Shown here piece by piece: positions 8,736 through 40,151 of a stretch of 64,000 bases of DNA (the stretch's first letter is position 1; the number at the start of each line of letters is the position of its first letter). The notes under the pieces were generated by a model that was given only the letters and a program-made list of their open reading frames with translations, was not told where the DNA came from and did no database searches. A program made the position numbers and the translations under genes. The DNA lies in the NCBI GenBank assembly GCA_022711115.1, contig JAKLFP010000009.1, forward strand, positions 4,622 through 68,621. The letters run 5' to 3'. Source of the stretch: Candidatus Omnitrophota bacterium (lineage in GTDB: Bacteria > Omnitrophota > Omnitrophia > Omnitrophales > Aquincolibacteriaceae).

Positions 8736-9539
8736 TCAATACGCTCTTTCAATCGAACTGCGGACCAAATCCCGGTCAAAAAGCCTCCGCTCCTGCTCGT
8801 CTTCCAGAAAACGCTCCACATCCGCTTGGGCCGCTTCAAAATCAATGCCCTCGATCCTCTCGAGCAAAAACGCCTTAAACGTTTCTCGGCTCAAATCCAG
8901 GCGCTTTTTCTCCGTCTGTTCAACGGCGTTATTCAAGAAAGTGAAATTCGGGACCGTTTTCCGCCCGACATACCAGATAAAATCATACCAATCCCGTCCC
9001 TTGTTATAGCCGCGGAAAAAACAGGCGTGCAGTTTGCCCGCGAACATGGACGGCAGGTCGTAATGCGCGACCCCGAAAAGATGGATCTTGTTCAGGATCG
9101 TATGAAGGATCACGGCCCCTTCCGGCGGACGCGTGTCCATGTCCCATTTGATCATCAGCTTTTCATCCGGCATGGCCGCCACGCCGAGGTCCTTGAACAG
9201 TCCGGGGAATTTGATCATCAGACTCTTGACCGCGCCCTGCTCCCGGGACTTGCCCTCCGCCTCGATCCCGTAAGACCGGTAGGATTTCAATAACGCTTCC
9301 GCGGCATCCCCAAACACGAACTCTTTTCCCGGAATCAGAGAAAAATCCAGATCCTCCGAAAAACGGCGCAAGTCAAAAAGGATCCTCAGCGCCGTCCCGC
9401 CAAGAAAAGCGGCAAAATCAAACATGCCCTTGTCACTCATGATCTTCAGGCACAAGACCTGAAGATATTCCCGGGCCATGTTCTTTTTCTGCTCCGCGGT
9501 CATCCCTTTCTGAAATTGATTCTGGATCAGATCGATCAT
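8736..9539 (-). CDS. abiEii: AbiEii/AbiGii-family nucleotidyltransferase toxin (type IV TA), pair 1
   Basis: FLGGTALRILFDLRRFSEDLDFSL nucleotidyltransferase motif (GG[TS]A...SEDLDF). ATGA overlap with the upstream AbiEi gene at 9536-9539. Confidence 0.85.
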   Translation of the reverse strand: MIDLIQNQFQKGMTAEQKKNMAREYLQVLCLKIMSDKGMFDFAAFLGGTALRILFDLRRFSEDLDFSLIPGKEFVFGDAAEALLKSYRSYGIEAEGKSREQGAVKSLMIKFPGLFKDLGVAAMPDEKLMIKWDMDTRPPEGAVILHTILNKIHLFGVAHYDLPSMFAGKLHACFFRGYNKGRDWYDFIWYVGRKTVPNFTFLNNAVEQTEKKRLDLSRETFKAFLLERIEGIDFEAAQADVERFLEDEQERRLFDRDLVRSSIERAY

Positions 9540-10171
9540 GACTTCCCCTCCGCGAGTTCGATCACCGCGTCGAGCACGCGCATCAGTTTCGGAGAACAAA
9601 ACAGTTCCCCGAACCGTTTCAGCTTCCCGGTCTTCAGACCAACCGCATTTTGAAAACGGTAGGACTTCATCATCATGGCCTTCACATCCTTCTGGAACAA
9701 ATGGAGATTCAAATAAATAAAATCCACAACGGCTTTTTCAGGCTCGGCCATAAAAAAACGCGCCCCCGCATCGCCTTCGAGCCGGAAACCGCGAAAGGCC
9801 GCTGGACTGACATGCTGATAAATAAAAGTACCCAAAGGGTTGGTGAACCGCATCGTCTTTCGCGTGGTAATCGAAGTGACCGCGGCCACCCGTTCCGGAA
9901 TCAGGTCATAAGACGCGAGCGCCGTTTCAAGACTGACATACGAAGGCGCATAGATCTGACAGGCAAGATACATGCCTCCGGGGTTCACCTTGCGGTCATT
10001 CTCATTCAGGACATAATAACCTTTACGCAAATGCCGGAGTAACCCTGCCTTGGCCCAGCGCGTCAGCTGATTCCGGACCGATTGCGGTGCCTCGCCGCTT
10101 TGCGAGATCACCAGCCGGCTGTCAATGAGCGGTAGATGCTGGAAAAATGCTCGAAACTTGTTGTAATTCAT
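9536..10171 (-). CDS. abiEi: AbiEi-family antitoxin/transcriptional regulator, pair 1
   Basis: N-terminal winged-helix region (QSVRNQLTRWAKAGLLRHLRKGYYVL) typical of AbiEi. Immediately upstream of AbiEii and translationally coupled to it. Confidence 0.8.
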   Translation of the reverse strand: MNYNKFRAFFQHLPLIDSRLVISQSGEAPQSVRNQLTRWAKAGLLRHLRKGYYVLNENDRKVNPGGMYLACQIYAPSYVSLETALASYDLIPERVAAVTSITTRKTMRFTNPLGTFIYQHVSPAAFRGFRLEGDAGARFFMAEPEKAVVDFIYLNLHLFQKDVKAMMMKSYRFQNAVGLKTGKLKRFGELFCSPKLMRVLDAVIELAEGKS

Positions 10172-10302
10172 TTCTAACTATACTCCTTTTTGATTATCAT
10201 TAGAAATGATTACATATAATACCTAAAAAGTCAAGCGCGCCACACCGATACGCCCACTCGCCCATTCGCAATCACGCCGTTACTCCGATACGCCCTTCGC
10301 CA

Positions 10303-12321: not shown

Positions 12322-12384
12322 TTTTTATTATTCCTCTTTTTTGTTATGAAGCACGCGCTCGCAGTTCCAAATCCCGGATGAAAA

Positions 12385-14112: not shown

Positions 14113-14157
14113 TGTTATTTGTTTCGAATTTCGTATTTAGTGTTTCGGATTTCATTG
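14110..14157. repeat. Partner of the 13702..13753 repeat
   Basis: See above. Confidence 0.7.
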
Positions 14158-14165
14158 GGCGCGTT

Positions 14166-18764: not shown

Positions 18765-18768
18765 CAAA

Positions 18769-18820
18769 GGTGACAGTCACCCAAAAGTGACTGTCACTTC
18801 ACGCCGTTACATCATTCCGC
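18769..18820. repeat. REP2 palindromic element, copy 2
   Basis: See copy 1. Confidence 0.75.
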
Positions 18821-19203
18821 ATTCGGCGTTCGGCATTCCCTCGTCTCGCGCCCCGTGCCCCGTCTGTGGCATTTTCAATCAAAATTTTCCTGATCTTCAA
18901 CGTCTTCCCGGTCAGGATCTGTAAGGGGTCGATTACGTTCTTTCTGTTTTGTAAACCAACCAGACGCCCGGCCTCGGTCATGATTTTAATGTTTGTACCG
19001 TTAAGCTTCTCGACAGCGATCGTGTCTGGATCGTCAAAGACCCATTCGAAACCAGGGCTCACCCGGTCGACCGCGAGACGCACCTCCGGAGCACGCAAGC
19101 CGTACCGGCTGCCACATTGCGCAAACTGATCCTTATTGACCGGAAAGGTCTGGCGAAGGAACGGGCATTCGATCTTTGGGAAATCAGTCAGTGTTTCCAT
19201 CAT
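18799..19203 (-). CDS. Hypothetical protein, 134 aa; possibly a truncated ATP-dependent ligase-like nucleotidyltransferase
   Basis: VEKLNGTN resembles ligase motif I (KxNG). The ORF ends in the REP2 palindrome. Weak. Confidence 0.3.
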   Translation of the reverse strand: MMETLTDFPKIECPFLRQTFPVNKDQFAQCGSRYGLRAPEVRLAVDRVSPGFEWVFDDPDTIAVEKLNGTNIKIMTEAGRLVGLQNRKNVIDPLQILTGKTLKIRKILIENATDGARGARRGNAERRMRNDVTA

Positions 19204-19215
19204 TTTTCTTATGGA

Positions 19216-20358
19216 TCAAAGGAGCTTACCGCTCCAAAGACGCTCGAGGAATTCTTGCCAGGGTAAGATTTCGATCCCTCCGGGGATGCTCCGGGGTTCC
19301 CTCTCAGTACAAACCACCACAGCCTTTTTTACGGGACCGTCTTCGAGAAGAGCTCGAAGGCCCCTCAGGTCCCCTTCATGAACTTTTCCGGACTTGATCT
19401 CGACCGCCGCTTCTTTTTCGCCAAGAATAAAATCCACTTCCTGTTTCGCTGCGGTACGCCAGTAGCGGATCGTCATCTCCGGCTCCCGGTAGGCCTGGTA
19501 CGCGCGCAATTCCATGAGGATGAAATGCTCGAACGCTTTTCCGAAATCGCTGTTACCCGGAACGGGATGCCGGCCGGCCAGAAACCCCGCGACGCCGACG
19601 TCAAAAAAATAAAATTTTTCGGCAAGAATCATGCGCCTGTTCTCTGACTTTGTCCAAGGGGGGATACGAAAACCCAAAAAAGTATCCTCGAGAATGTCAA
19701 AATACAAACGGACCGTCCGCTGCGAAACGCCGCACTCGCGGGCGATGTTGGTATAGTTCAGGATTTCGCTCGAAGTCAGCGTGGCGACCCGCAAAAAATC
19801 AGAAAAAGAAGGAATGCTCTGCGTCAGCGCTTCCGCGGCGATCTCTTCTTTCAGGTAATCCGCGACATAGGAGCGAAGATCCTCGGCGGGGCTCTCTGAA
19901 AGAAAATGGGGTGGCAGCATCCCGGTGAAGAGCGCCTTTTCCAATTGGAAGCCCGTGACCTCGGAAAAGGATAGCGGCAACATCACACGCCGCCACGCCC
20001 GTCCTCCCAACAAATTGGCATGCCCTCTTCGGAGCTTCCTGGCGCTGGATCCCGTCAAAAGAAATTGTGCTCCCCGTTCTTCGATCAACCACTGAACCTC
20101 GTCGAGAAGCCGCGGTATTTTTTGAACTTCGTCGATCACGATCATTTTTCCGTATTTTTCGTACCGCTCGCGCAAAAGCGCCGGTCGCGCCGCATATTCG
20201 GCAAAAACATCCGTTTGAAGCAGATCGATCAGCTTAACGCCTTTAAGGTGTTTGCGGATCCAAAAGCTTTTTCCTGCTTTACGCGGACCCCACAAAAAGC
20301 AGGATTTTCCCTTAGGGAGGTGAAGGTCGACTTGGCGCTCTATGATTTTTGTACTCAT
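19216..20358 (-). CDS. AAA+ ATPase with C-terminal DUF4143 (COG1373), copy 2
   Basis: Walker A GPRKAGKS. C-terminal EVDFILGEK...VEIK looks like a PD-(D/E)xK motif. Confidence 0.8.
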   Translation of the reverse strand: MSTKIIERQVDLHLPKGKSCFLWGPRKAGKSFWIRKHLKGVKLIDLLQTDVFAEYAARPALLRERYEKYGKMIVIDEVQKIPRLLDEVQWLIEERGAQFLLTGSSARKLRRGHANLLGGRAWRRVMLPLSFSEVTGFQLEKALFTGMLPPHFLSESPAEDLRSYVADYLKEEIAAEALTQSIPSFSDFLRVATLTSSEILNYTNIARECGVSQRTVRLYFDILEDTFLGFRIPPWTKSENRRMILAEKFYFFDVGVAGFLAGRHPVPGNSDFGKAFEHFILMELRAYQAYREPEMTIRYWRTAAKQEVDFILGEKEAAVEIKSGKVHEGDLRGLRALLEDGPVKKAVVVCTEREPRSIPGGIEILPWQEFLERLWSGKLL

Positions 20359-27377: not shown

Positions 27378-27680
27378 TTACTTTAACATAACGAATTTAC
27401 AATAAAAATCTAGCACGCCGGTCGCATTTGTCAACGGCAAAAAATCACCGGCAAGCTCCCGGCTGAAAGGCATGTAGGCCACCAAGGCGTACGTCACGAT
27501 CTCCGGCTGTTTGATTCCCTTAATAAGCAGAAAAATACCGGACACCACTGTTAATCCCACAATAAGCATTTTCGGAAGCTGTACTTCCTTAATGATCAGA
27601 TAAGCAAAAAAACAAACCGCGACTGTCACCCAAAGGTACGTATTTTTCCCTTCAGAATTGGCAACGGAATTAGTGGTCAT
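27378..27680 (-). pseudogene. Duplicated N-terminal fragment of the O-antigen-ligase-like gene 23889..25454
   Basis: Encodes KNTYLWVTVAVCFFAYLIIKEVQLPK...IVTYALVAYMPFSRELAGDFLP, about 85% identical to the ligase N-terminus. About 250 bp of nucleotide similarity to 25165..25457. Confidence 0.6.
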
Positions 27681-28770: not shown

Positions 28771-29606
28771 CTGTTTTCTATTTCCGTTCTATTCGATGGG
28801 AAAAGAAATGAACCCAAATAACCCAAGGCTACGCCCCAAGATCCTTTCTTAACAGCATTTCTCATCAATAAGTTCGAATATTTCCTGACCTTCGCAGAAA
28901 GAAGTCTCTGCGCTTTAGGATCATCCGAGATTTGCATCCATTTTTGCGCAAGCTTAACTTGCTGTTTGTAATTCTTAACATCATCCAGCGTCGATTGATT
29001 CGAGTGTTCACGGTAACAGCCGAGCGACTTTTCTACAAACAACGCCGGAAATTGATTGACTACACGCAAAAATAAATCCATGTCTTCATAAATCGCTAAA
29101 GATTCGTCAAATATTCCGGCAGCATCGAGACTCCGTTTTCTCATCAGGCAAGAAGATGTCATTGCGCTCCCGGCCTCAAGCATGGTTAGAAAATCGATGC
29201 CGGGTTTTTGCTTAGGCTTCATGCGGCCTGTCCGCCGGCCATATTCATCCATTATCTCAAGATACGAAAACACCATTCCTAATTTTGGATTGAATTCCAA
29301 AATCGGAATTTGCACGCTTAATTTTTCCGGGAGCCAGCTATCATCGGCATCGAGAAACGCGATATATTCCCCCCGCGAAGCTTTGATGCCTTTGTTTCTC
29401 GCAGCCGATACCCCAGCATTATTTTGATATAAATACTGTATCCTTCCCCCGTACTTTTTTAGCGCTTTTTCCGTATCGTCTATTGAGCCATCGTTAATGA
29501 CGATAATTTCGAGGTCATGATAAGTTTGTGCCAGTACGCTGTCGATTGCATCGCAAATATATTCTGCTCGATTGAATGTAGGTATAATGACGCTAACCTT
29601 AGGCAT
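28767..29606 (-). CDS. Glycosyltransferase family 2
   Basis: VSVIIPTFNRAEYICDAIDSVLAQTY...EIIVINDGSIDDT and DADD motif. Confidence 0.85.
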   Translation of the reverse strand: MPKVSVIIPTFNRAEYICDAIDSVLAQTYHDLEIIVINDGSIDDTEKALKKYGGRIQYLYQNNAGVSAARNKGIKASRGEYIAFLDADDSWLPEKLSVQIPILEFNPKLGMVFSYLEIMDEYGRRTGRMKPKQKPGIDFLTMLEAGSAMTSSCLMRKRSLDAAGIFDESLAIYEDMDLFLRVVNQFPALFVEKSLGCYREHSNQSTLDDVKNYKQQVKLAQKWMQISDDPKAQRLLSAKVRKYSNLLMRNAVKKGSWGVALGYLGSFLFPSNRTEIENR

Positions 29607-29616
29607 GGCGTCTTAA

Positions 29617-30780
29617 CTAGAGCTCTGTTTCTTCGATGACATTTTCACTTTTAATAACCTCTAAATATGCCTTCCCAAATTTCAAATCAGGTTCGAGATG
29701 ATTACCCTCAGCCCATTCATTCCATGACTTTATGATGATAATCCGCTCATCATATTTTCGAACACTAACCTGATTGATCGCAGCTCTCAAGTGTCTCCTG
29801 AATAACTCCGGCGTCGAGTTGTGCAAGACCAAACCGCGCATACCACTTCTCGGTGTGTTATCCCAGTTCGGAAGCACCATGGGGAACTCCATAACACCCT
29901 CTCGGAAATCCACTGTTCCAACGTTCACAAAGTTTTCGTATAAATAGTTGTCAGGTTTTCGGGCAATTCTGCGTCTATAAAAATCACGGAAATCTCCGCC
30001 CATAAGAAAAGAAAATAGTTTATCGCTAAAAGTTTCGGTTGATTTAGCCAAATCATGATAAACCGCAGGGAGAATATTGGTAACAGTGGCATCAAATCCA
30101 TTTTTGAGAGGGTTCCATTCCGTCTCAGTATGTGCGACAAGATATATCCCCTTCAATCCTGAACGGGCGGCAAGATTACGCCAACAGTCGGCAAATTCTT
30201 TAGGGTTTGGCAGATTGTTGACTTGATACACGAGGAATAGCGGACGGCCATCTACCGTAATATAACGCTGATCAAAAAAAGCACCTTCCAATGCTTTGAA
30301 ATGCGCTTCATAATCAGACAATCCTGGATAAGTCTGCTCGATTAGTATTCGATCCGGGGCACCATGCCACTTTCCTGACCAACTCTCATTTGCCCAACCC
30401 AAACAAAATGGGAAATCAGGCTCGCCAAATTTCAAAACTTCGTTGAAAGGGCGTTCGAGCAGTCTTCTTCCATTACCAAACCAATAATGCCAATAGCAAA
30501 AACCTTCGATACCGTACTCTTTTGCCATTTCCGCTTGGGCGATGCGCACTTCCGGCAATCGAAGATCATAAAAACCCAAATCCGCCGGAACATGTGGCTG
30601 ATAATGCCCACGAAACATGGGTTTTGCTTTCGCGGTATTCGTCCACTCCGTAAACCCTTTGCCCCACCATTCATCGTTTTCAGGAATAGGATGGAATTGG
30701 GGGAGATAAAAAGCGATCAGACGAACATTTTTTTTCAAGCTCTCTTTAGTCGATCGCTTTTTGTTGAATATTGGCGACAT
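29617..30780 (-). CDS. Glycoside hydrolase family 99-like (WbsX-like) LPS/EPS biosynthesis protein
   Basis: FYLPQFHPIPENDEWWGKGFTEWTN N-terminal signature of WbsX/GH99-like proteins. Confidence 0.55.
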   Translation of the reverse strand: MSPIFNKKRSTKESLKKNVRLIAFYLPQFHPIPENDEWWGKGFTEWTNTAKAKPMFRGHYQPHVPADLGFYDLRLPEVRIAQAEMAKEYGIEGFCYWHYWFGNGRRLLERPFNEVLKFGEPDFPFCLGWANESWSGKWHGAPDRILIEQTYPGLSDYEAHFKALEGAFFDQRYITVDGRPLFLVYQVNNLPNPKEFADCWRNLAARSGLKGIYLVAHTETEWNPLKNGFDATVTNILPAVYHDLAKSTETFSDKLFSFLMGGDFRDFYRRRIARKPDNYLYENFVNVGTVDFREGVMEFPMVLPNWDNTPRSGMRGLVLHNSTPELFRRHLRAAINQVSVRKYDERIIIIKSWNEWAEGNHLEPDLKFGKAYLEVIKSENVIEETEL

Positions 30781-30787
30781 ACTTTTA

Positions 30788-32023
30788 TTAAGCTCCTTTT
30801 ATGATTCGGCTAATGGCAGCCATGTTTTGATAGGCTGCAGCAATCAGCTCACTTCGTTTTTGAATAATTCTCGCCTTCGGTATCTTTATCAATTTATCAT
30901 AGGTATTCACAACTTCATCAAACGGAATAATCGGATGGAGACTAAAATCGCTCCATGTTTTTACAAATGCAGCAACCTTAGAGACGCCAACAAAACCAGC
31001 ACTGGGCACACAAAATGAGCATGCAGTTAGATTACCGTGTAAGCTAGTACCAAAAAAGGCCTTTGCTTTTGAAATTAAAAACATAATATCGAAGATGGAA
31101 GCTTCATCCGTAGGCATACAACACGCAACAGAACACTCCTTCTTCAACTGTTTCAAGGCTATATGGTCTTCGTGATCAGGAACACGGCCAATTGGCAATA
31201 AAACAATATTAAGACCCTTTTCAAGAACTAGCCTCGCTATCTGGTCAGCAAGCAAGAGAATTTTATCGTAGGTTACTTTTCTGCTAATTTGAATGCAAAC
31301 GTAGTTGTCTTTTTGTTTTTCAGTTAGTAGTAGGTTCAATTTAGGAGAAACTAAGCACTTCAGCATCTCTGCGTTGAAATATTCCGACACGAGAATCGCA
31401 GAATCTGGTGCGAGAACCAATTTATTTTGATTAACACCCGCTTCCAATATAGATTGAAAAGTGTCACAATCTCTGACGGACACATATTTCGCCGCATTTA
31501 ATAATTTCGCTGCGCAATCCCTTTGATCTTTACACAAATTATTAAAATCAGTACCCCCGACAGAATTATAAATAATGTTAACATTTTGTTTACACAACAA
31601 CGGGTCAACAACCCATGGCAGCTCCGTCATACCGCCTAGTAAATATTTGCTGAATCGATGAAAAGATCGTCTACTTAAAGTTTCTCGAAGATATTTCACA
31701 ATTATGGTCGAAACACCCCTAGTCAAATGAAGCAGCATTGTTCCCCACTCTGGCCCGATAACATCTCCACCAGCAACAATAATCGCGTCACCGCAACTAA
31801 ACTTATTTTTTCGAAGCAAGCTCTTCACCGATTTTGTTTTTTTTCCTCCATAGCGTGACAAGTCACTTTTAATTAGGCCGTAATATTCGATTGCATGTCT
31901 AATTGCCTCACGATGCAAATGTTTTTCCAGGATATATGGAAACAATAAATCACCATAATTAAACCTATCGAATGCCCCGAATATTGCAACTTTGTTCTTC
32001 GTCATTTTGATATCACCTTGCAA
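30788..32023 (-). CDS. Polysaccharide pyruvyl transferase family protein
   Basis: N-terminal KVAIFGAFDRFNYGDLLFPYIL matches the G-x-x-N-x-GD motif of PS_pyruv_trans (CsaB/WcaK-like). About 400 aa. Confidence 0.55.
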   Translation of the reverse strand: MQGDIKMTKNKVAIFGAFDRFNYGDLLFPYILEKHLHREAIRHAIEYYGLIKSDLSRYGGKKTKSVKSLLRKNKFSCGDAIIVAGGDVIGPEWGTMLLHLTRGVSTIIVKYLRETLSRRSFHRFSKYLLGGMTELPWVVDPLLCKQNVNIIYNSVGGTDFNNLCKDQRDCAAKLLNAAKYVSVRDCDTFQSILEAGVNQNKLVLAPDSAILVSEYFNAEMLKCLVSPKLNLLLTEKQKDNYVCIQISRKVTYDKILLLADQIARLVLEKGLNIVLLPIGRVPDHEDHIALKQLKKECSVACCMPTDEASIFDIMFLISKAKAFFGTSLHGNLTACSFCVPSAGFVGVSKVAAFVKTWSDFSLHPIIPFDEVVNTYDKLIKIPKARIIQKRSELIAAAYQNMAAISRIIKGA

Positions 32024-32090
32024 GGCATATAAATATGTATAACTTTTCGATAAAAATAGACTGAATAATCAAAAACCACTTTGTTTATTG

Positions 32091-33323
32091 CTATGAGTGC
32101 GCTGTTTTCGAGGCCAAGGTCATCTTGTGTAGTAAATTTAACGCTCTCTTAGGCCAGCCTTTAATACCCATATAATAGATACCACTCACGCAATCCTCGA
32201 TCGCATCTACTAATGCAGGATCGCAATTGGCTTTCTTAGCCGCCACTAGATTAGTTAGCCATTCCCGCCTCAGACTGGTGTCCAGCTTAATCCGCCGAAT
32301 CCTCCAGTATTCAAGGGGATTATCGAACGCCTGACATTGTTGCAATGTGTTTGTTATTGCCAAATTCACCATGCTTCGCACACATTTTTCACAAATACCA
32401 CAATTATACAAATTGCTACGGTTCTCATGGCAGACTCTGATTGCGTTCAAAGCAAACAAATCCTGCGAAACAAATTGAGCTTTTTGAACCCTAGTTGCTT
32501 CACAGCCATCGTGAACTATTTCTATCGCATCTGTACTCCAAAATGGATCAATTAACGGATGTGTACCCCAAGGCTCTAAAAGGCCAAAAGGATTTGATGA
32601 AGCAATGTAGACCTTATGCAGTTCTTTCGAGAGCAACATGGCAATTCCAGCTAATGCAGGGCCGTGCATCTGATGTCCCCAATCCCCATAATCATCAGAA
32701 AAATTGCGGACATCTGTTTCAACTTCTATGATTGATTTATTATAATGGTTTGCAATTTTTTTTAATTCAGTCGAAACCTTTTCCCTTAAGGCATGATTAT
32801 CTAAACGAATATCCAATCCATAGCAAATTATAATCCTATTAATTTCGGAATTGCGTTTCAGAAAGGAATAAAATGAATCAATTCCACCAGTAAAAAAACA
32901 TCCTACTGATCTTTTGACATTTTCCGTGATAGGCTTTTTTGATAATGCCCAATAATCAACGGGAATTAAACGATAGGTTGGCCACCAGCTATTTACAATA
33001 AGTTGAATTATTTTATGATTCTCAGCCAATCGCCTTGACAGAACACCCTCTATTTTTAACGGCAGATTTTCTTTCATTGCGGCATAGAGACTGATTGGAA
33101 AAAAAGAGTCTATCTCAGATGAAATATTTTCCACACCTTTAACAATGTGTGAAATCTGATAGTCGCGCGCACCTACAGATATCTTCGTTGATAAATTTAT
33201 GCAATCTTTTCTCGAAACTAAAGTAGGCTGTTTAACTATTACAGGCACTGTATTTGTGTCCATCGGAACAAAATCCAGCACATTCATAGGCTTCTCATCT
33301 CCTTCATCAACAGCGTTATTCAT
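32091..33323 (-). CDS. PP-loop ATPase superfamily protein (QueC/ExsB-like); possibly an N-acetyl sugar amidotransferase of LPS/EPS biosynthesis
   Basis: FFTGGIDS is a PP-loop-like motif. C-terminal CGICEKCVR is a zinc-binding C-G-x-C-x-x-C-x-R motif as in QueC. Confidence 0.4.
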   Translation of the reverse strand: MNNAVDEGDEKPMNVLDFVPMDTNTVPVIVKQPTLVSRKDCINLSTKISVGARDYQISHIVKGVENISSEIDSFFPISLYAAMKENLPLKIEGVLSRRLAENHKIIQLIVNSWWPTYRLIPVDYWALSKKPITENVKRSVGCFFTGGIDSFYSFLKRNSEINRIIICYGLDIRLDNHALREKVSTELKKIANHYNKSIIEVETDVRNFSDDYGDWGHQMHGPALAGIAMLLSKELHKVYIASSNPFGLLEPWGTHPLIDPFWSTDAIEIVHDGCEATRVQKAQFVSQDLFALNAIRVCHENRSNLYNCGICEKCVRSMVNLAITNTLQQCQAFDNPLEYWRIRRIKLDTSLRREWLTNLVAAKKANCDPALVDAIEDCVSGIYYMGIKGWPKRALNLLHKMTLASKTAHS

Positions 33324-33331
33324 TGATAAAA

Positions 33332-33961
33332 TTATTTCTTAACCCACTCCGACTCTTTTTTATCATACTGCCGAACAACTCGCGCTGGGCATCCCACCAC
33401 AACCGAATAATCGGCAACATCACTCGTTACAACAGCGCCGGCACCGACAACAACATTTTTTCCAATACAAACCCGCGGTAATATTATGGCCCCATGACCG
33501 ATATAACAGCCATCACCAATGATCACATATCCTCCTTCTGTAAGAGGCTGTGAGATAATTGGTTTGTTCACGTCATAGAAAGTATGGCTAAGATCCGTAA
33601 TTCCAACTTGAGAACCAATAAGAACATTATTTCCAATGATTACTTTATTATTAGATTGAATGGACGCAAACCACCCTATATGAGTACCATTACCAATAAC
33701 AATTTCTGGCTTAAATTTCTGCTCGCTGTCGCTCCAGTGATCGCAAGCAACTAATCGGACATAAGGTTCTATTTCCACTTTGTCACCAATAGATATATGT
33801 TGCGGGTTTAAAACCCAAGCAATCGGTTCCTGCAAGTGAGATCCCCTACCGAAGTGTTTAAATTTATTTTTCAATTCGTAACTTCTATGAGCATGCTTAA
33901 CAAATCCCCACCCATTTAGAATATCTATGACCGGCTGTTTAAACCATGTTGGTATTGTCAT
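33332..33961 (-). CDS. Hexapeptide-repeat O-acetyltransferase (maltose/galactoside acetyltransferase-like)
   Basis: IGNNVLIGSQVGITD...IIGDGCYIGHGAIILPRVCIGKNVVVGAGAVV LbH repeats. Confidence 0.8.
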   Translation of the reverse strand: MTIPTWFKQPVIDILNGWGFVKHAHRSYELKNKFKHFGRGSHLQEPIAWVLNPQHISIGDKVEIEPYVRLVACDHWSDSEQKFKPEIVIGNGTHIGWFASIQSNNKVIIGNNVLIGSQVGITDLSHTFYDVNKPIISQPLTEGGYVIIGDGCYIGHGAIILPRVCIGKNVVVGAGAVVTSDVADYSVVVGCPARVVRQYDKKESEWVKK

Positions 33962-34069: not shown

Positions 34070-35575
34070 TCATAACTTCTTACGTATGAGGAGCTGCTTT
34101 ACTTCAACCGCTGCGGCACGGTCAAAGAGCCAGGCACTGCCAAGGTAAGCACCTAAAGACAGTGCGCTAATCATGCCGACATAAATCAAACGGGGCAGCA
34201 TATTATCCAGAACATTCCAAGGTGCTGACAGCCAGCGAATGCCAAGAATTATGGCAATCATGGCTCCGGAGCAATAAATCGACAGCAAAAACTGCGGCAA
34301 GAATTCCCGCCAGCGGAACGTGATGATTTTCCGGACAAGTGAAATATTCAGCGGTAAACCAATCGCTAGTGTGACGAACCCCGAGGCCACGGCACCGATA
34401 AGACCGAATTGATGAGTTAAGAAAATAAGTGCAGGAATCTTGACCGCAAGACTAACAAGCGACAAATAATAATTGTATTTCGGATGACCGCAACCGAGGA
34501 AAAGGGCTCCTGAGCATGCAAGAACAGGCACAATAAGTTGAAAAACACCAAAAAGCTGAATCAGCGGAACAATGGATATCCATTTCCAGCCATACAGTGT
34601 AAGAACGAGCTCTTTAGCAAGGAATATCAATCCCACGGCAAAAGGCATGGAGATTAAAGAAACGAATTTTGTGGTCTTCAGATAAACGCGTTTGACTTCC
34701 TCGATATCATGCTGAAGCGAGGCGTAGGCGGGAAGCATGACGCCTGAAAACAGAAAGGTAAAATGTGTATTAATAAAATTTCCTATATTTCCGGCCAACG
34801 CAAAATAGCCAAGCATGGTGGTACCGAGGATCTTTCCCACAACAATGTTCCCCATATTATCACTGACGTAACAAAGAATACCCAACCCCACCATAAATTT
34901 GCCGTAATGGAGGAGTTCCCAGGCGATCTTTTTGCTGAATTGCCATTTGACACGATATCCGGAAAGCCGCCGTGCCAGAACTGCCGTCACAAATTGTTTT
35001 GCGACATAGGCCCACACAAGCGCCCAGACCGTTGGACTGAACAGCGCTATGACAATGGCAACTGCGGAATTGACAACGGCACCCACCAGTTCGATCAAGG
35101 CCAAGGTGTCAAATTTCATGGCTTTGGTCAAAAGGGTCATGGGAATTTTTGAAAAACTGGTAAAGATAAAGATGATACCGAGCGCGCGGACAATGGAAGT
35201 AACATCCGAGTTGTGAAAGAAATAGCCCGCAACAGGTGCGACAAGAAAACAGATGCCGAACAAGACAAAGCCCTGGATCTGGACAATGAAATAAGCGGTG
35301 TGGCTCGCCTCTTCGATATTGTCTTTTCTTTGGATGAGCGCGGTATCAAGGCCGAAGGATTTCAAAACCTGAAAGCCGTCGATCAGGATAAACGCCATGG
35401 CGAAAAGGCCGAAGGTAGAGGGTTCGAGGATGCGGGCCAGGACGGCGAACGTGGCGACGGAGATGACTTTTTGGGCGATTTTGTTGACCATTTGCCATTT
35501 GACGCCGGAAACCGTCTTCGCCTTCAGCGAAGGACGCGGCGTGGGGCCTGGGGCGTGGGGCACGGGAGACGTCAC
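34070..35575 (-). CDS. Polysaccharide biosynthesis protein / Wzx-type flippase (MOP superfamily)
   Basis: About 12-14 TM helices, 501 aa, typical Wzx architecture. Confidence 0.8.
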   Translation of the reverse strand: MTSPVPHAPGPTPRPSLKAKTVSGVKWQMVNKIAQKVISVATFAVLARILEPSTFGLFAMAFILIDGFQVLKSFGLDTALIQRKDNIEEASHTAYFIVQIQGFVLFGICFLVAPVAGYFFHNSDVTSIVRALGIIFIFTSFSKIPMTLLTKAMKFDTLALIELVGAVVNSAVAIVIALFSPTVWALVWAYVAKQFVTAVLARRLSGYRVKWQFSKKIAWELLHYGKFMVGLGILCYVSDNMGNIVVGKILGTTMLGYFALAGNIGNFINTHFTFLFSGVMLPAYASLQHDIEEVKRVYLKTTKFVSLISMPFAVGLIFLAKELVLTLYGWKWISIVPLIQLFGVFQLIVPVLACSGALFLGCGHPKYNYYLSLVSLAVKIPALIFLTHQFGLIGAVASGFVTLAIGLPLNISLVRKIITFRWREFLPQFLLSIYCSGAMIAIILGIRWLSAPWNVLDNMLPRLIYVGMISALSLGAYLGSAWLFDRAAAVEVKQLLIRKKL

Positions 35576-35949
35576 GAGAGCTTCCCTCCCAGGGTAATAA
35601 GCATGGCGCGTAAATGATCTATCTTATTTTTAAGCAGCTCAAGATTCTCCGATTTTACAAATTGAAGGTTTTGGGCGATTTGAATTTGCGTTTCCAATTC
35701 CGCGAGAGAACCTACTGCAATATAAACGAATTGCCGGTATTCCGCCCGATGCTTCCGCGAATGACCTTCAGCAATATTCGAAGGGATTGAAACCACGGCT
35801 CTTTTCATCTGGCTTGCCAAGCCGTAAATCTCTTCTTTAGGTAATTGTGCACACAATTGATAAACCATTTCTGTAAGCGCCATTCCTTCCTGCCACACCC
35901 TCAGGTCCTTAAAACTTGTTATCTTATTTTCCGTTTTTTCAGCTGTCAT
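35572..35949 (-). CDS. Four-helix-bundle protein (TIGR02436-like)
   Basis: FKDLRVWQEGMALTEMVY...SIPSNIAEGHSRK motif. Confidence 0.8.
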   Translation of the reverse strand: MTAEKTENKITSFKDLRVWQEGMALTEMVYQLCAQLPKEEIYGLASQMKRAVVSIPSNIAEGHSRKHRAEYRQFVYIAVGSLAELETQIQIAQNLQFVKSENLELLKNKIDHLRAMLITLGGKLS

Positions 35950-36905
35950 TCCCTTTTCCCCTGTCTCTTGCCCCGTTCCCCGTTTTTCCGCCCTAAAATA
36001 CCGTAAGCCTCCATCATCCCGTCACAGAGAAGATCTTCCAGCAAACTAGAATCATTCTCCATTTGGGATTTGTTTAAATATTGAATATAAAATCGCCGCT
36101 TTTCTTGCCGGATAATGGCCGGAGGGAAATCCTCTCGCAGCAGCATGGCCGCCAACAACAATCGCCCGACTCTTCCGTTGCCGTCTGAGAAAGGATGGAT
36201 TTGTTCAAAACGGCTGTGGATCAAAGCCCCATGGCCCAAAATATCCTTCCCCTTTTCCGCGATCACCTCATTGAGCTGTTTCATTAAAAAAGGAACTTTT
36301 AAATAGTTCGCAGTCGGAACATGGGAACCCGCAATCCGCACCCCATGCTTCCGGTATTGACCCGCATCTTCCTGAATGCCATTGAGAAGGATCCCGTGAA
36401 GTTTCAAAATAAAGGCATCCCCGATCGGGGTTTTTTCCGCAAGACTTCTGAACAAAACCCCTAATGCGGCTTGATGATTTTTGACTTCCATCTGCTCAAG
36501 GATGGTCTTATTCGGCAATGAAGCATTCTGAAATAAGATGGCAGCCGTTTCCGGCTCCGTCAGGGTGCTCCCCTCAATACGGTTCGTGTTATAAGTGAGC
36601 GCCAGAACAAAGTCATCATAGATATCCCGATTTTCAGCAAGCCTTCTTAAAACACCGGAACACCGGGCCCGCTTCGCGTGCAGGATCTGTTTTTTCGCCT
36701 CCAAAGCACTTGCCGGGATGACATTTTGACCCGTGAACCGCAGGTAGGCGGCATCAATACGGGCGCATGCCTTTTGACGCGGCACCGAACGCCCATTGAT
36801 CCAGCTATTCAAGGTCGGAAATGAGACCCCCAACTCTGCAGCAAGCTGCTCTTGGCTCATTTGAGACAATTGCTTTATAAGGGTAAGTTTGTCTTGAGTT
36901 CTCAT
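35946..36905 (-). CDS. Fic-family protein with N-terminal XRE-type HTH
   Basis: Canonical Fic motif IHPFSDGNGRVGRLL. N-terminal HTH (SQEQLAAELGVSFPTLNSWINGRSVP). Confidence 0.85.
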   Translation of the reverse strand: MRTQDKLTLIKQLSQMSQEQLAAELGVSFPTLNSWINGRSVPRQKACARIDAAYLRFTGQNVIPASALEAKKQILHAKRARCSGVLRRLAENRDIYDDFVLALTYNTNRIEGSTLTEPETAAILFQNASLPNKTILEQMEVKNHQAALGVLFRSLAEKTPIGDAFILKLHGILLNGIQEDAGQYRKHGVRIAGSHVPTANYLKVPFLMKQLNEVIAEKGKDILGHGALIHSRFEQIHPFSDGNGRVGRLLLAAMLLREDFPPAIIRQEKRRFYIQYLNKSQMENDSSLLEDLLCDGMMEAYGILGRKNGERGKRQGKRE

Positions 36906-37198
36906 AGTTGAATAATAGCTAACTTTATAATAAGTGTCAAATTCTTATAACTTTATAAAGTTTCAAATCCTCTAAAAATGCCGCACAAATCGACAGATTT
37001 AAAACTCTGGCTTCCTGCGAGACGGCAGCGGGTGGTTGGCAGGCGACAACACTGCTTCCTGCCTCCTGTTTACTGCCAACTGTTTACCGTTTCCCGTCTT
37101 TCCCTCGTCCCTTGCCCCGTTCCCCGTGTCTCATTCCGCATCTCTCTGCTTCCTGCCGACTGCTTCCCGCTAACCCCTCCCCACGGGACGGCGTCCGG

Positions 37199-37897
37199 TT
37201 AGAGCAGGGCTTTGGCCATCTGATGCAGGTCCTCATGCGCCAGGGCTTTCAACCTTTTTTTAACGACCCTGTAAAAGTACTCTTTTTCGGTCTTCGTCAT
37301 CGCCTTGCCGGCGAGTCTCTTTTTCAGGACTTCTTTCTGCCTCGCCGTGAATATTTCGGAAAGCAATAGTTCATATTCCATCTCCTGCTTTTTTTTACAG
37401 ACTGCCCGGGTATCCGGCTCCTGCACGACGTAATTCTTGAAATTCTCCTTGAGCCTCTGTGTCGATAATTCGGTCCCGCCGGCCGAGACCGTTTCCGAAC
37501 GCGCAAAGGCTCTCTCGAGAACCTCCGCCGTTTGTTTGCCGGCTCCGGACCGATGCAACAGTTTTTCAGTCCGGTCCGAGTATTTTTGTTCAAGTCCGAA
37601 AAGCCGCACCAAATGCCCTGTCATCTCCAGAAGCATCCGGAGCTTTTCGCCCAAAGCCGCGGGCAGCTTCCTGCGTAAGTCTTCCCGGGACCGCTCCCAG
37701 CTGAGCGTCTCTTTTTCCTTCATCGCATTCACAAGAACGACGGGAAACCCTTCCAGGAGGCGCGGGTCACTTTGCCTGAGAAGATTTTCCAGGACCTCCG
37801 TGGGGTCTCCGGCGAAACGGCGGCTCACGAGGGGGTACCCGTACCCGGACAATGAATCCAACAGATCCTGCTGCGTCATTTTTTTCATCTGGCTCAC
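37199..37897 (-). CDS. Hypothetical protein, 232 aa; downstream partner of the nucleotidyltransferase and possible toxin/HEPN-like component
   Basis: 4-nt overlap with the upstream nucleotidyltransferase gene. Rx5H-like RTEKLLH. No confident family. Confidence 0.4.
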   Translation of the reverse strand: MSQMKKMTQQDLLDSLSGYGYPLVSRRFAGDPTEVLENLLRQSDPRLLEGFPVVLVNAMKEKETLSWERSREDLRRKLPAALGEKLRMLLEMTGHLVRLFGLEQKYSDRTEKLLHRSGAGKQTAEVLERAFARSETVSAGGTELSTQRLKENFKNYVVQEPDTRAVCKKKQEMEYELLLSEIFTARQKEVLKKRLAGKAMTKTEKEYFYRVVKKRLKALAHEDLHQMAKALL

Positions 37898-38466
37898 CCC
37901 TTGAGGTGTTTCATGAGTATTTCGTAATTGCGTAAAACGCGCGTTTCATTCGTTTCATACTTCGCGGTCTCGCGATAGCGTTTTTCCATCTTCCTGAGAT
38001 CCGGTCTCTCGCGGCGTATCAAAACAAGACTGTCTTCGATATCCACCAAGGTGCCCCGAAACATTTTCGAGATGATCAAGTCCGTCGGATCCAATACCCC
38101 GAGATAAATTTTCTTCCACGAGCGGATCTTCCGGTTCCCGCCTCTTCGAAGCGGCGTCGTCAAAAGTTCCGTGGTATAGACCTTTTTTCCGGGATAAATG
38201 TCAAACAAGATCGCCTCCCCCGGCCTTTGCCACCCAAAACCGCTTCTCCGGTCATAGCCGGCGCTTCCCAGAAAGCGGACCAAACGAAGATACTCTCCGG
38301 CATCCGGCACCAGCAGGTCAACATCCTTAGTCGAATCCTTATAACCCAAAAGAGTGAGCGCCGTTCCCCCGCACGCGATCAAACGGATCCGGCCCCTCCC
38401 GGGGATCAACGCATCCCACGCCTCAACGGTATGAAACAATTCGTTGGCATTGATGCGGTATTCCAT
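37894..38466 (-). CDS. Minimal nucleotidyltransferase (MNT/AbiEii-N-like)
   Basis: IACGGTALTLLGYKDSTKDVDLLVPD is a GG[TS]-x...D-x-D nucleotidyltransferase motif. Confidence 0.6.
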   Translation of the reverse strand: MEYRINANELFHTVEAWDALIPGRGRIRLIACGGTALTLLGYKDSTKDVDLLVPDAGEYLRLVRFLGSAGYDRRSGFGWQRPGEAILFDIYPGKKVYTTELLTTPLRRGGNRKIRSWKKIYLGVLDPTDLIISKMFRGTLVDIEDSLVLIRRERPDLRKMEKRYRETAKYETNETRVLRNYEILMKHLKG

Positions 38467-38632
38467 GGCCCTCTCCCTTCATCCCGATACCAATGGTAGC
38501 GCGGGAAAGCACGAAAGTCAATAGAATAATGTATTATATTATACATACACATGTATTATTTTGAACAATTTAATGAGTCTTTTAATACATTTATTAATAA
38601 ATTTGCCCCTCGTCTCGTGTCCCGTTCCCCGT

Positions 38633-39400
38633 TCAATCCTCCGGAAGGAACGGCCCCAAACGCGTGACCATTTTTTCGATCATCGCATCGGACACCGTTT
38701 TTGCGTACACAATCCTTTCCAATTCGGTTTCTTTGTCTCTTTGAGCCCTTTGCCAATTTGCCTTTACATTCGAGTGCTTGATCGGGTTTCGGATTTCTTT
38801 GGCTGCGATCAACTTTCGCACCTCCGCCGCATCAAATTTGAATTGGTCGACAAGAAGCACCAGGTCATAAAAATCCCTATACCGGGCACGATCATTGGCT
38901 GCCCTTATTTTTTCAGCACAAATTTCGCGTTCATCCATGACCTTCACCCGGGCTTGAACGCCCCAGGCATTACGATAGTCCTTACTTTTTGCCGGCAATA
39001 CGACATTTTGTTTAAAATCGATCTCCACCTTCAGGGAGTTGGGCAATCCCAGCGGGCCGGCGTATTTCAACCGATCGATCTTAATCGTCGCACCGGAGAA
39101 ATATTCTTTCTTTACTTCCAAAAAATCATGGCCCAGAAAAACGGATTTGACTTCTTCCAGGGTGATGCGCGGATCCAGCGATGTGAAATCCAGGTCCTCC
39201 GAAAACCGGGTCTGCTCCAGATAACAATGATGAATGGCCGTCCCGCCCTTGAAGACCAGTTTTCCGGCCAGCGGGGATCCGTAAATGATCTTCGCAACCA
39301 CCGCTAAAAGATAATCTTTTTCAGCGACGGACAACTGATATTTCAGGGACCGTTTATTCAGGATGCTAAGCTGGGTTTTGGTCAATAAGACGATCATCAA
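38633..39400 (-). CDS. abiEii: AbiEii-family nucleotidyltransferase toxin, pair 4
   Basis: FKGGTAIHHCYLEQTRFSEDLDFTS motif. Confidence 0.85.
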   Translation of the reverse strand: MMIVLLTKTQLSILNKRSLKYQLSVAEKDYLLAVVAKIIYGSPLAGKLVFKGGTAIHHCYLEQTRFSEDLDFTSLDPRITLEEVKSVFLGHDFLEVKKEYFSGATIKIDRLKYAGPLGLPNSLKVEIDFKQNVVLPAKSKDYRNAWGVQARVKVMDEREICAEKIRAANDRARYRDFYDLVLLVDQFKFDAAEVRKLIAAKEIRNPIKHSNVKANWQRAQRDKETELERIVYAKTVSDAMIEKMVTRLGPFLPED

Positions 39401-40151
39401 AATACAGTCTCCATTTCGAATTGAACTGCTTTGCTTCCGGCGTCATCCTGCTAAAACTGGATTTTTTTTGTATTTTTCGCTCTAGCTCACCGGTGGGGAT
39501 CCCGAGACGGTCAAGAAAAAAACCGGTCTGCCGGATGACCTGATAATTGAATTTGGACGCATACTCTTTTAGCCGGTCAAAATCGATCTCCTTGCGGTAT
39601 TGCCGGAGCTTTTCCCATACCAGACTGGCGGCGTATCCCGACGGATTAAAATACAGCAGGTCCAGCATGGCCTTTTCAATACACGCAACCTGGAGGCTTC
39701 CCAAGTCGGACCGCTCGGGAGAAAATCCAAAAAAGAGCGCCTTCTTCACGCTAAAAAACCGTATCTCCCCGCCCTGGATCCTGTATCTTCCGGGTTTCTC
39801 AAAAGTGACTGCGCCAACGCTTTTGATCATCTGATCAAAGAGCCCGTGATACTGCAGCGCCCTTTCAAATGAAATATAGCAGTTTTTTTTGATGGCTTGG
39901 GCGATGGCATCCAGCGAGACGTCATTCGCCCCTCTGCTGCCAACATCCGTCATGACGACAAAAAGCCCCCGCTTGATCCGGATCAGCCAGCCAAGCTTTG
40001 TAAGAAGCGCAACGCGGTTGCGAATGACCGGATCCGATGTTTGCCCGGACAAAATTTCCCTGATTTGGGCAAAGGTCACAATGCGGCCATGGCGAGCGGT
40101 GATTTCCTCAAGTAATTCGTTTGTCTTATGAGACAGTATTGTTTTTTTCAT
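39366..40151 (-). CDS. abiEi: AbiEi-family antitoxin, pair 4
   Basis: N-terminal wHTH (GRIVTFAQIREIL...LTKLGWLIRIKRGLFVV). Upstream of and overlapping AbiEii. Confidence 0.8.
   Translation of the reverse strand: MKKTILSHKTNELLEEITARHGRIVTFAQIREILSGQTSDPVIRNRVALLTKLGWLIRIKRGLFVVMTDVGSRGANDVSLDAIAQAIKKNCYISFERALQYHGLFDQMIKSVGAVTFEKPGRYRIQGGEIRFFSVKKALFFGFSPERSDLGSLQVACIEKAMLDLLYFNPSGYAASLVWEKLRQYRKEIDFDRLKEYASKFNYQVIRQTGFFLDRLGIPTGELERKIQKKSSFSRMTPEAKQFNSKWRLYFDDRLIDQNPA

Follow-up and report, generated by a model that had tools for sequence, protein, structure and literature searches.

The 64,000-nucleotide stretch analysed here (the window) belongs to an Omnitrophota metagenome-assembled genome (MAG) from an anaerobic digester, recorded at NCBI as 'Candidatus Omnitrophota bacterium', and it holds four AbiEi/AbiEii antitoxin-toxin gene pairs spread through a single exopolysaccharide (EPS) biosynthesis locus. 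The minus strand carries nearly all transcription between about 46.1 kb and 3.2 kb, and, judged by its gene content, this region is probably a ~43-kb one-orientation EPS operon of the XrtA/PEP-CTERM type in an uncultured member of the Omnitrophota. Its conserved core (40652..46089, minus strand), recognised by Pfam and NCBIfam models and syntenic in relatives, consists of a MerR-like gene, a Poly_export gene (44862-45926), a GNVR chain-length determinant (43339-44553), an AAA_22 ATPase gene (41803-42633) and the gene of a tyrosine-autokinase-like AAA_31 protein (40652-41707). On the 3' side of the core follow a MOP flippase, two Wzy_C, four GT4 and one GT2 genes, WbsX, a pyruvyl transferase, two hexapeptide acetyltransferases and one deacetylase fusion. 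Against the NCBIfam models, the core scored 277.1 bits for pepcterm_ChnLen (just below the cutoff of 278.85), 321.7 bits for pepcterm_ATPase (just below 324.5), 112 bits for pepcterm_export (cutoff 180) and 151 bits for the eps_fam autokinase (above the cutoff of 108). Since three of these scores lie just below or above the model cutoffs, the preliminary description of this DNA was fair in placing the pairs within one EPS biosynthesis locus. No exosortase gene was found among the scanned window proteins, and one could lie beyond the window; with 20.3 bits, the protein encoded at 46712-47500 fell marginally short of the PEP-CTERM cutoff (20.7).

The four pairs had been placed at 8736..10171, 20788..22133, 25700..27362 and 38633..40151, and at each of these positions the expected open reading frames (ORFs) were recovered exactly, all on the minus strand. 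In pair 1, the antitoxin AbiEi-1 (9536..10171, 211 amino acids, short class) matches the PADLOC model PDLC02241 over residues 1-205 (9e-53) and the toxin AbiEii-1 (8736..9539, the longest ORF reaching 9599) matches PF08843 (2e-24) and its PADLOC model (2.6e-67). Pair 2 comprises AbiEi-2 (21528..22133, 201 amino acids; PADLOC AbiEi 4e-37) and AbiEii-2 (20788..21531, 247 amino acids; PF08843 9e-25, PADLOC 2e-28), and pair 3 comprises AbiEi-3 (26562-27362; Pfam AbiEi_1 5.8e-8, which passes the threshold, PADLOC 6e-47) and AbiEii-3 (25700-26578; PF08843 9e-32, PADLOC 1.3e-35). In pair 4, AbiEi-4 (39366..40151, 261 amino acids) is matched by PADLOC (1.5e-34) and, below threshold, by Pfam AbiEi_4 and AbiEi_1, and AbiEii-4 (38633..39400, 254-255 amino acids) by PF08843 (1.7e-27) and PADLOC (1.5e-34). 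The arrangement described for all of them, with the antitoxin upstream, the toxin downstream and the genes overlapping, holds throughout: the overlap is 4 nt (ATGA) in pairs 1 and 2, 17 nt in pair 3 and ~32 nt in pair 4. Toxin 1 probably starts at the ATG at 9539 rather than at the TTG at 9599, which creates the ATGA overlap with the stop codon of AbiEi-1.

AbiE is a familiar family, and the public record of the MAG, to which the NCBI proteins HOW59364-HOW59403 belong, labels part of these genes as AbiE components. This applies to the toxins of pairs 2 and 3 and the antitoxins of pairs 3 and 4; toxin 2 appears there as 'AbiEii/AbiGii toxin family' and antitoxins 1 and 2 as 'hypothetical'. The toxins score 87-111 bits against PF08843, for which the cutoff is 22.5. 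The antitoxins fall into two size classes, short (~200 amino acids) and long (~260 amino acids); NCBIfam TAA_AbiEi gives them 14-39 bits, far under its cutoff of 150. That antitoxins 1 and 2 had no match at all in the Pfam scan is the sole hint in favour of an artefact, i.e., of pseudogenes or of a chimeric assembly. Against this, the PADLOC AbiEi models cover all four antitoxins almost end to end and the antitoxins are mutually homologous, all eight ORFs are uninterrupted and are covered by their models over nearly the full length, the catalytic residues of the toxins are invariant, and an identical gene order is present in at least five independent metagenome assemblies from anaerobic digesters (ENA, JGI, Logan), so that the locus is no assembly artefact. 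The pairs are thus intact, as they had appeared to be, and decay or misassembly is effectively refuted as an explanation.

The nucleotidyltransferase (NTase) signature GGTA...SEDLDF, which had been attributed to every toxin, is present in three of them, but toxin 3 reads GGTC...SEDLDF. In an alignment of the four toxins, the motifs EK(L/V/I)xA and RD(F/W)YD are invariant, an IK(F/W/V)E/D strand keeps its acidic residue, and the invariant positions in toxin-3 numbering are G51, G52, T53, R64, S66, E67, D68, L69, D70, F71, K188, R201, D202, Y204 and D205. They correspond to the four NTase motifs known from AbiEii and MenT toxins (PMC3985639, PMC11375011), and functions are assigned to them by analogy. 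Searched against the PDB, a profile of the four toxins matched AbiGII (9HLO, ~3e-10), MenT4 (6Y56, 3.6e-10) and JHP933-like structures (~1e-10), and single toxin sequences gave weak matches; the antitoxins had no meaningful match in the PDB, whether as single sequences or as a profile, and an AlphaFold2 model of antitoxin 1 built on a 4-sequence alignment was unusable (pLDDT 39.5, pTM 0.30).

What such proteins do has been described in other organisms. The mycobacterial toxins MenT1, MenT3 and MenT4 extend tRNA 3' ends and block translation (PMC7450476, PMC10435456), and AbiEii of Streptococcus agalactiae binds GTP (PMC3985639); a 2026 preprint on the S. agalactiae toxin reports a preference for UTP (bioRxiv 10.64898/2026.01.19.700257). 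In the original type IV model, AbiEi and AbiEii act without direct contact. The preprint describes an AbiEi-AbiEii complex in which AbiEi brings about auto-phosphorylation of AbiEii at T65, reclassifies the system as type VII, and places the phospho-acceptor at the Ser/Thr of an R-x-S/T-x-D-x-D loop (bioRxiv 10.64898/2026.01.19.700257). The Ser equivalent to T65 (R-x-S-E-D-L-D-F) is invariant in the alignment of the four window toxins. By analogy with these systems, AbiEii, a DUF1814 NTase, would add nucleotides to tRNA 3' ends so that translation stops, while AbiEi, a winged-helix protein, would repress the operon and neutralise the toxin.

The four pairs are only distantly related to each other. 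Pairwise identities within the window are 25-37% for the toxins and 18-41% for the antitoxins (AbiEi-1 and AbiEi-2 share 41% over 122 amino acids), and the best PADLOC sub-models differ between pairs. Toxin 3 is at most 30% identical to the other toxins of the window, whereas its full-length homologues in other Omnitrophota reach 83-86%, and hundreds more at 60-73% occur in Omnitrophota, Kiritimatiellia, Proteobacteria and unclassified metagenome contigs. With toxin 3 closer to foreign homologues than to its neighbours, the earlier view that the pairs are not recent tandem copies is borne out. They were apparently acquired independently, each as a two-gene operon that looks functional. On viral contigs, only distant AbiEii relatives were found (at most 38% identity), with no sign of phage-borne copies of these cassettes.

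Pair 3 allowed its borders to be traced at the nucleotide level. In blastn comparisons of the window with two other Omnitrophota glycan loci (L138 and L139), homology at 78% nucleotide identity is restricted to 25713-27442, i.e., to 1.7 kb on the minus strand that run from the -35 box through the end of the toxin gene and comprise the promoter, an operator-like inverted repeat, AbiEi-3 and AbiEii-3. In these two loci, the toxin is 83-86% identical and the 266-amino-acid antitoxin about 80% identical to that of the window, but no flanking gene is common to the three cassettes. The L138 copy lies between a GT4 gene and an Asn-synthase-GT4 fusion, and the L139 copy between PMT_2/DUF2079 genes and a VapBC-like pair (11063-11685), after which come GT2, deacetylase and Wzy genes. 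A second, unrelated AbiE pair (L139 17297-18546) directly follows that Wzy gene. Three further orthologues, at 64-65% identity, lie outside glycan loci: one beside PEP-CTERM-linked regulators (L140), one in a generic island that also contains another AbiE pair, two DUF4143 genes and an MNT/HEPN pair (L141), and one adjoining an integrase fragment (L142). Glycan loci therefore account for three of the six contexts compared for pair 3, these being the window and its two closest (83-86%) orthologues.

These borders bear directly on the suggestion, made in the preliminary description, that such modules stabilise polysaccharide cassettes, taken here to mean that each AbiE pair acts as an addiction module that retains, and moves with, one neighbouring glycosyltransferase cassette. 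Toxin-antitoxin cassettes are known to stabilise chromosomal integron arrays, which counts for such a role, and pair 3 and the slot of pair 4 lie near the two ends of a low-GC glycosyltransferase block. That block (27670..33961, minus strand) holds GT4, GT2, WbsX, pyruvyl transferase, a 410-amino-acid protein of unknown function and an acetyltransferase; AbiE-3 is just downstream of it, at lower coordinates, and the variable slot with pair 4 is two genes upstream, beyond the flippase. The pair-3 cassette, however, has three wholly different sets of flanking genes, with homology ending at its borders, and in close relatives, whose glycosyltransferase cassettes are different, the slot is occupied by modules other than AbiE. 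The claim that each pair travels with a glycosyltransferase cassette is thus contradicted for pair 3, since its homology is confined to the 1.7-kb cassette, its flanks are unrelated and it also occurs in non-glycan contexts, and we regard stabilisation of such cassettes as very unlikely to explain the four pairs.

Each antitoxin is preceded, 30-70 nt upstream, by a site on the minus strand that resembles a sigma-70 promoter. The site of pair 1 (10206..10234, TTGACT-17-AATCAT with a TG) and that of pair 2 (22187-22159) were identified by consensus match, the former with a 12-nt inverted repeat across -40..+6, and the site of pair 4 (40190-40218, TTGACA-17-TATTTT) is overlapped by an inverted repeat. 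The promoter of pair 3 (27407-27434, TTGACA-N17-TAGATT) is conserved with its inverted repeat in six genomes, in which the cassette starts with TTGACA-N17-TAGATT-like hexamers and the repeat AAGTAAnCC...GGTTACTT abutting the ATG. The short inverted repeats near the promoters of pairs 1, 3 and 4 (10-12 nt) could be operators. The start of pair 3 matches what is expected of an autoregulated AbiE operon, i.e., a promoter with inverted repeats (PMC3985639, PMC7319586), and pair 3 may accordingly be read, by this likeness, as autoregulated.

A different role for the pairs would be a functional one, in which they are kept as layered phage defence together with the polysaccharide, and are co-transcribed or co-regulated with the EPS genes, so that a cell whose glycan serves phages as a receptor would have abortive infection as a backstop. 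There is a precedent in Escherichia coli, where over 500 genomes conserve an AbiE pair by the group 2 capsule genes; pair and capsule genes share a transcript, and both influence how susceptible the cell is to phages (PMC12488582). In line with this, all four pairs of the window are co-oriented with the operon, orthologues of pair 3 are found in glycan loci of three Omnitrophota, and the second AbiE pair of L139 comes after Wzy. On the other hand, each pair has a promoter-like site of its own and the border of the pair-3 cassette falls at the -35 box, the 64-65% orthologues stand outside glycan clusters (next to regulators, in a toxin-antitoxin island, by an integrase fragment), and many unrelated selfish genes share the same locus. 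On this evidence, we consider functional coupling to the EPS genes unlikely.

The sequences around the modules preserve traces of how they may have arrived. An intact Wzy_C#2 polymerase/ligase-like gene (23889..25454, minus strand; Pfam Wzy_C 3e-21) is accompanied by two remnants of a Wzy gene on the same strand: an N-terminal piece, the 100-amino-acid ORF at 27378..27680, which adjoins the upstream end of the AbiE-3 cassette and matches residues 29-114 of Wzy_C#2 at 77% amino acid identity, and a C-terminal piece (22162..22449) with 80% amino acid identity to residues 448-515, between DUF4143#3 and AbiE pair 2. The stretch from one remnant to the other is occupied by AbiE-3, heptamer arrays, the intact Wzy_C#2 gene, a palindromic element and DUF4143#3. 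Direct repeats flank several of the modules, and each remnant includes one repeat copy (27435-27644 in the N-terminal and 22209-22369 in the C-terminal one). AbiE-3 is flanked by a 210-nt repeat (27435-27644 and 25158-25367, 82% identical, with an 87-nt core at 95%), DUF4143#3 by one of 161 nt (22209-22369 and 23939-24099, 93%), DUF4143#1 by one of 88 nt (3108-3195 and 4471-4558, 93%), and DUF4143#2 with its small ORF by one of 89 nt (18676-18764 and 20525-20613, 96%). The same is seen elsewhere, with a 68-nt repeat (82%) around the AbiE genes of L138, a 41-nt repeat (88%) around the AbiE-3 orthologue of L139, a 93-nt repeat (92%) around the second pair of L139, whose upstream copy is the 3' end of the intact Wzy gene, and a 50-nt repeat (88%) around the AbiE genes of L142. 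The repeat sequences vary from site to site, and so derive from the target rather than from the element. Pair 2 has a 23-nt G-rich array on both sides and nothing longer in common.

By Pfam, no integrase or transposase is encoded between 3 and 46 kb. Insertion would therefore have been duplicative and recombinase-independent, by template switching in replication or repair, or by homology-facilitated illegitimate recombination of imported DNA in which the flank was present in diverged form; the observations fit either candidate equally. For the DUF4143 ATPase genes, the flanking repeats suggest individually inserted mobile units, without a recognised recombinase. A prophage or an integrative and conjugative element was rejected as carrier, there being no phage, conjugation or recombinase genes from 3 to 46 kb and homology to relatives ending at the 1.7-kb module. 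Also rejected was the possibility that AbiE modules are bracketed by complementary arms like intervening sequences (IVS), as their flanks, by duplex energy, pair no more stably than shuffled sequence does (z +0.3 to +0.9).

Comparison with relatives shows that part of the locus turns over. A scan of genome contigs with the tyrosine-kinase-like protein gave a Sulfurovum match only (31% identical); the closest named relatives by AAA_22 are Omnitrophota MAGs. In two of these (L014 and L015, AAA_22 89% identical), the core genes keep their order, with 72-83% nucleotide identity. Homology to L015 stops at 40673, directly past the AAA_31 gene, and restarts at 35516, at the flippase. The slot thus defined between the tyrosine-kinase-like gene and the flippase (35572..40651, minus strand) holds AbiE-4, the DUF6036 NTase pair (37199-38466), an HTH+Fic gene (35946-36905) and IVP#3, of the 23S_rRNA_IVP family (35572-35949). 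In L014 and L015, the slot cargo is an AbiEi_2-like and NTP_transf_8 pair with an IVP gene, and in a relative with 91% AAA_22 identity it is a Schlafen/AlbA_2-HATPase_c_4 gene. In two relatives at 65% identity, the first 10 kb downstream of the EPS core are free of such modules. As the cargo differs among relatives, the slot turns over, and the load of the window is extreme.

Accessory modules make up about 39% of the 42.7-kb EPS locus, and 14 of 16 are co-oriented with the operon (binomial p=0.002), the only ones on the plus strand being two ORF6N genes. Besides the four AbiE pairs and the ORF6N genes, there are three DUF4143/AAA_14 ATPases, namely #1 at 3196..4455, #2 with a 134-amino-acid ORF at 18799..20358 and #3 at the 3' end of Wzy_C#2 (22376..23608), three 23S_rRNA_IVP four-helix-bundle genes, an RhuM-N+Fic gene (12519-13490), the HTH+Fic gene, the DUF6036 NTase pair and a HATPase-DUF4325 gene; those with coordinates here are on the minus strand. 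The companions listed in the preliminary description are largely recovered, i.e., the two ORF6N and three four-helix-bundle genes, the NTase pair and the three DUF4143 genes, but there are two Fic-domain genes, one of which is the RhuM-N+Fic gene, and one DUF4143 gene (3196-4455) lies outside the range of 8736-40151 that had been given. Base composition is mosaic as well, with a GC content of 0.54-0.56 in the core and 0.39-0.44 in the glycosyltransferase block from 27.7 to 34 kb. The accessory share, the differing slot cargo of relatives and the insertion scars all support the reading of the locus as a hotspot, which had been offered earlier as one of two alternatives.

A hotspot need not be specific to this locus, and the genome might be rich in modules everywhere, with the EPS locus being one long, non-essential collector among many. 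The right flank of the window fits such a picture, since it is a tmRNA island with restriction-modification genes and a Schlafen-like gene, adjoined by a DUF433/PIN pair; in L141, housekeeping genes surround two AbiE pairs, two DUF4143 genes and an MNT/HEPN pair, and AbiE has been reported as the fourth most abundant defence system (PMC11375011). But four AbiE pairs and about twelve other modules in 43 kb are extreme, the syntenic EPS loci of more distant Omnitrophota lack them over the 10 kb that follow the core, and ~4 kb of housekeeping DNA beyond the island is free of such modules. A general richness without locus specificity is therefore possible but, in our view, doubtful.

The island itself, on its gene content a defence island, spans ~15 kb at the tmRNA gene beside smpB (51927-64000 and on, L144 1-7800), with the tmRNA at L144 4031-4420, about 3.4 kb past the window end. 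It begins with the only integrase of the window, of the tyrosine type (51927-53111), and its cargo includes a resolvase, an N6/N4 type III-like methylase (837 amino acids, past the window end), a Schlafen/AlbA_2 protein and a ResIII helicase with a TnsA-like C-terminus. The DUF433 and PIN (DUF5615) toxin-antitoxin pair (51167-51695) lies beside the island integrase, just outside the EPS locus.

Taken together, we consider it probable, with some room for doubt, that the EPS operon has been colonised repeatedly by small selfish or defence modules, and that the four AbiE pairs are independent, self-promoted operons in a recombination hotspot. The modules would enter intergenic spacers or gene ends in a recombinase-independent, target-duplicating manner that leaves direct repeats of 41-210 nt, with the interrupted EPS gene being kept intact by selection. 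Three factors might explain their accumulation. Firstly, the variable part of a glycan operon would be a recombination hotspot under diversifying selection, as is already known as a theme for such regions; secondly, the operon would tolerate insertions that are co-oriented and carry their own promoters; and thirdly, loss of a toxin-antitoxin module would be counter-selected, which may act as a ratchet, although the flanking repeats would allow excision.

Several points weigh against this colonisation scenario. Pairs 1 and 4 have no flanking direct repeats that we could find, so that the insertion signature is not universal, and the direct repeats that do occur, at 82-96% identity, fit old duplications and imported diverged flanks alike. 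Promoter-like matches are overall no commoner than in shuffled sequence, and it is their placement alone that is suggestive. Co-travel was traced for pair 3, one of the four pairs, and the figures on module density cover the window and the compared loci rather than the whole MAG. Finally, toxicity, neutralisation and phage defence are ascribed to the four pairs from homology.

The intergenic DNA of the locus has peculiarities of its own. Most spacers from 3.1 to 47.9 kb contain imperfect tandem heptamer arrays of several unit types, such as those, partly forming hairpins, at 4451-4612, 8480-8575, 15368-15491, 17325-17386, 20441-20529, 25421-25671, 40515-40660, 41741-41794, 44625-44725, 46601-46700 and 47835-47932. 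A strict lag test found 13 arrays of period 7 and zero at periods 5, 6, 8 and 9, and spacers with arrays number 20 of 29 inside the locus versus 0 of 17 outside (p=2e-6). Units of the form (GARGTAN)n pair with (NTACYTC)n into imperfect hairpins of 25-35 bp, of which four have RNA folding z-scores between -5.5 and -6.5 and three have weaker ones (-1.9 to -3.5), and a three-unit heptamer pattern (at most 2 mismatches) occurs 34 times compared with 0.01 expected. No Rfam model matched the window at gathering thresholds, with no rRNA among the results, and a tRNA scan of it found none. L138 and L139 have no heptamer arrays, and thus AbiE modules can insert without them. Heptamers repeated in tandem between genes, with no function assigned, have been described in Beggiatoaceae, Cyanobacteria and Bacteroidetes (PMC4679880), and in Geobacter metallireducens (PMC2700814).

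Some of these arrays are associated with the 23S_rRNA_IVP genes. At IVP#1 (6745-7290) and IVP#2 (13600-14165), complementary terminal arrays pair in both minimum free energy and centroid folds, and at IVP#1 the arrays span the gene start. In metagenomes, a scan for four GARGTAN units returned at least 120 contigs from many habitats; among 80 listed loci, there are four in which arrays directly enclose an IVP gene, and all three of those that were folded show paired termini (L047 2790-3300, L025 240-760 and L070 800-1400). Heptamer hairpins that lack an ORF may be empty derivatives of such IVP elements.

A second class of array is G-rich, (GGGGAAC)n, with 15 of 15 matches on the sense strand. 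These arrays (4722-4751, 17334-17377, 20625-20654, 22200-22262, 23726-23755, 35956-35985, 37107-37136, 38605-38634 and 40396-40425, minus strand) typically sit, like a boundary mark, at the 3' edge of a gene or module, for example behind AbiEii-4 and the DUF6036 pair and where a Fic gene ends, and they could form G-quadruplexes. A dispersed element of 108-220 nt is present in four copies that are 89-93% identical (4634-4741, 17333-17552, 20617-20836 and 23718-23937); it holds the perfect 31-nt palindrome AGGGACGGTTCTTGCGACAAGAACCGTCCCT, and three of the copies are located just upstream of DUF4143 ATPase genes. In addition, a 55-nt repeat, 98% identical at two distant intergenic sites (12382-12436 and 18766-18820), consists of the palindrome GTGACAGTCAC...GTGACTGTCAC followed by a T-run, and is terminator-like.

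The arrays can also be built into a bolder reading, in which the EPS operon is an integrase-free, integron-like array: promoter-to-stop modules, among them the AbiE pairs and the DUF4143 ATPases, would be copied in co-orientation by template switching or homology-facilitated illegitimate recombination, with the EPS gene preserved, and sense-strand G-rich arrays and IVS-like heptamer stems would form the junctions, perhaps insulating or processing the transcript. We regard this as speculative and distinctly unlikely; if true across Omnitrophota, such a cassette array would be an undescribed route for defence genes into and between surface-glycan loci. A conventional integron array was considered and rejected, as there is no IntI (none from 3 to 46 kb, the sole integrase belonging to the tmRNA island) and there are no attC-type palindromes.

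A few observations concern the remainder of the EPS genes. A 620-nt leader (46090-46711) separates the gene of the borderline PEP-CTERM protein from the first EPS gene (MerR-like); it bears heptamer arrays of the CCACACG type and may have a part in regulating the operon. A 133-amino-acid ORF (42620-43021), located between the GNVR and AAA_22 genes, is a mosaic: its first part resembles the AAA_31 N-terminus (~41% identity), and its residues 78-123 resemble GNVR residues 213-258 (41%). It is absent in relatives, in which the GNVR and AAA_22 genes overlap, and it looks like a duplication or recombination scar. At 15516-16034 (minus strand), a hexapeptide acetyltransferase was retained as the real gene, and the plus-strand ORFs at 15379-16067 were discarded.

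Returning to the repeated colonisation that we favour, the locus offers a base-resolved example of defence or addiction modules that invade a polysaccharide operon without destroying it. The invading modules are co-oriented, carry promoter-like sites of their own and are associated with target duplications that would regenerate the interrupted gene, and one 1.7-kb cassette recurs in three different glycan loci. Independently of this, the heptamer hairpins and IVS-like elements provide a separate lead on the role of S23p/IVP elements and of tandem intergenic heptamers.

Several known systems can be compared with these findings. The AbiE systems of S. agalactiae and Lactococcus lactis (Dy et al., 2014; PMC3985639) have the same antitoxin-first overlapping bicistron and the four toxin motifs; their AbiEi antitoxins and promoter inverted repeats have likely counterparts in the window, by the PADLOC matches and by the repeats at pairs 1, 3 and 4. 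By contrast, the window pairs have low identity to them, include two antitoxin size classes and are chromosomal inside an EPS operon rather than on a plasmid. The MenAT systems of Mycobacterium tuberculosis (MenT1/3/4; PMC7450476, PMC10435456, PMC11375011) have toxins of the same superfamily, with the conserved Ser of the window toxins aligning with the phospho-acceptor, and in both cases there are several divergent paralogous pairs per genome. However, the mycobacterial pairs are scattered on the chromosome, whereas the four of the window lie within 31 kb.

The IVP elements have a classic parallel in the 23S rRNA IVS of Coxiella. Its ends are inverted repeats at which RNase III cuts, and the S23p ORF that it carries is preceded by tandem heptamers (PMC4990558). 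IVP#1 and IVP#2 share the ORF, the heptamers and, in predicted folds, the terminal stems, but they sit between protein-coding genes of the EPS operon and not in a 23S rRNA gene. Chromosomal integron arrays resemble the locus in having small modules in one direction, some of them toxin-antitoxin systems with their own promoters, and short repeated boundaries; the modules of the window differ in being interleaved with the genes of a functional operon, and their borders are target duplications or non-palindromic G-rich arrays.

Within the Omnitrophota, two preprints report hypervariable polysaccharide cassettes, and restriction-modification or toxin-antitoxin cargo in hypervariable regions (bioRxiv 10.64898/2026.05.20.726742 and 10.64898/2026.06.07.730766). 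Those regions and the present locus both have a conserved export/chain-length core followed by a strain-variable glycosyltransferase region. The preprints give statistics at the level of categories and, as far as their accessible text goes, do not describe promoter-to-stop cassettes, target-derived repeats, gene remnants or junction heptamers. Lastly, the AbiE pair of the E. coli capsule locus (CFT073 c3681-c3682; PMC12488582) is, like the pairs of the window, linked to and co-oriented with a surface-polysaccharide locus. In E. coli, there is one conserved pair at the edge of the cluster, whereas the window has four divergent pairs between biosynthesis genes, accompanied by many other modules, with turnover and in another phylum. 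Since surface glycans are phage receptors and AbiE is linked to the capsule in E. coli, its recurrence in such a distant phylum suggests a general association between AbiE and surface-polysaccharide loci.

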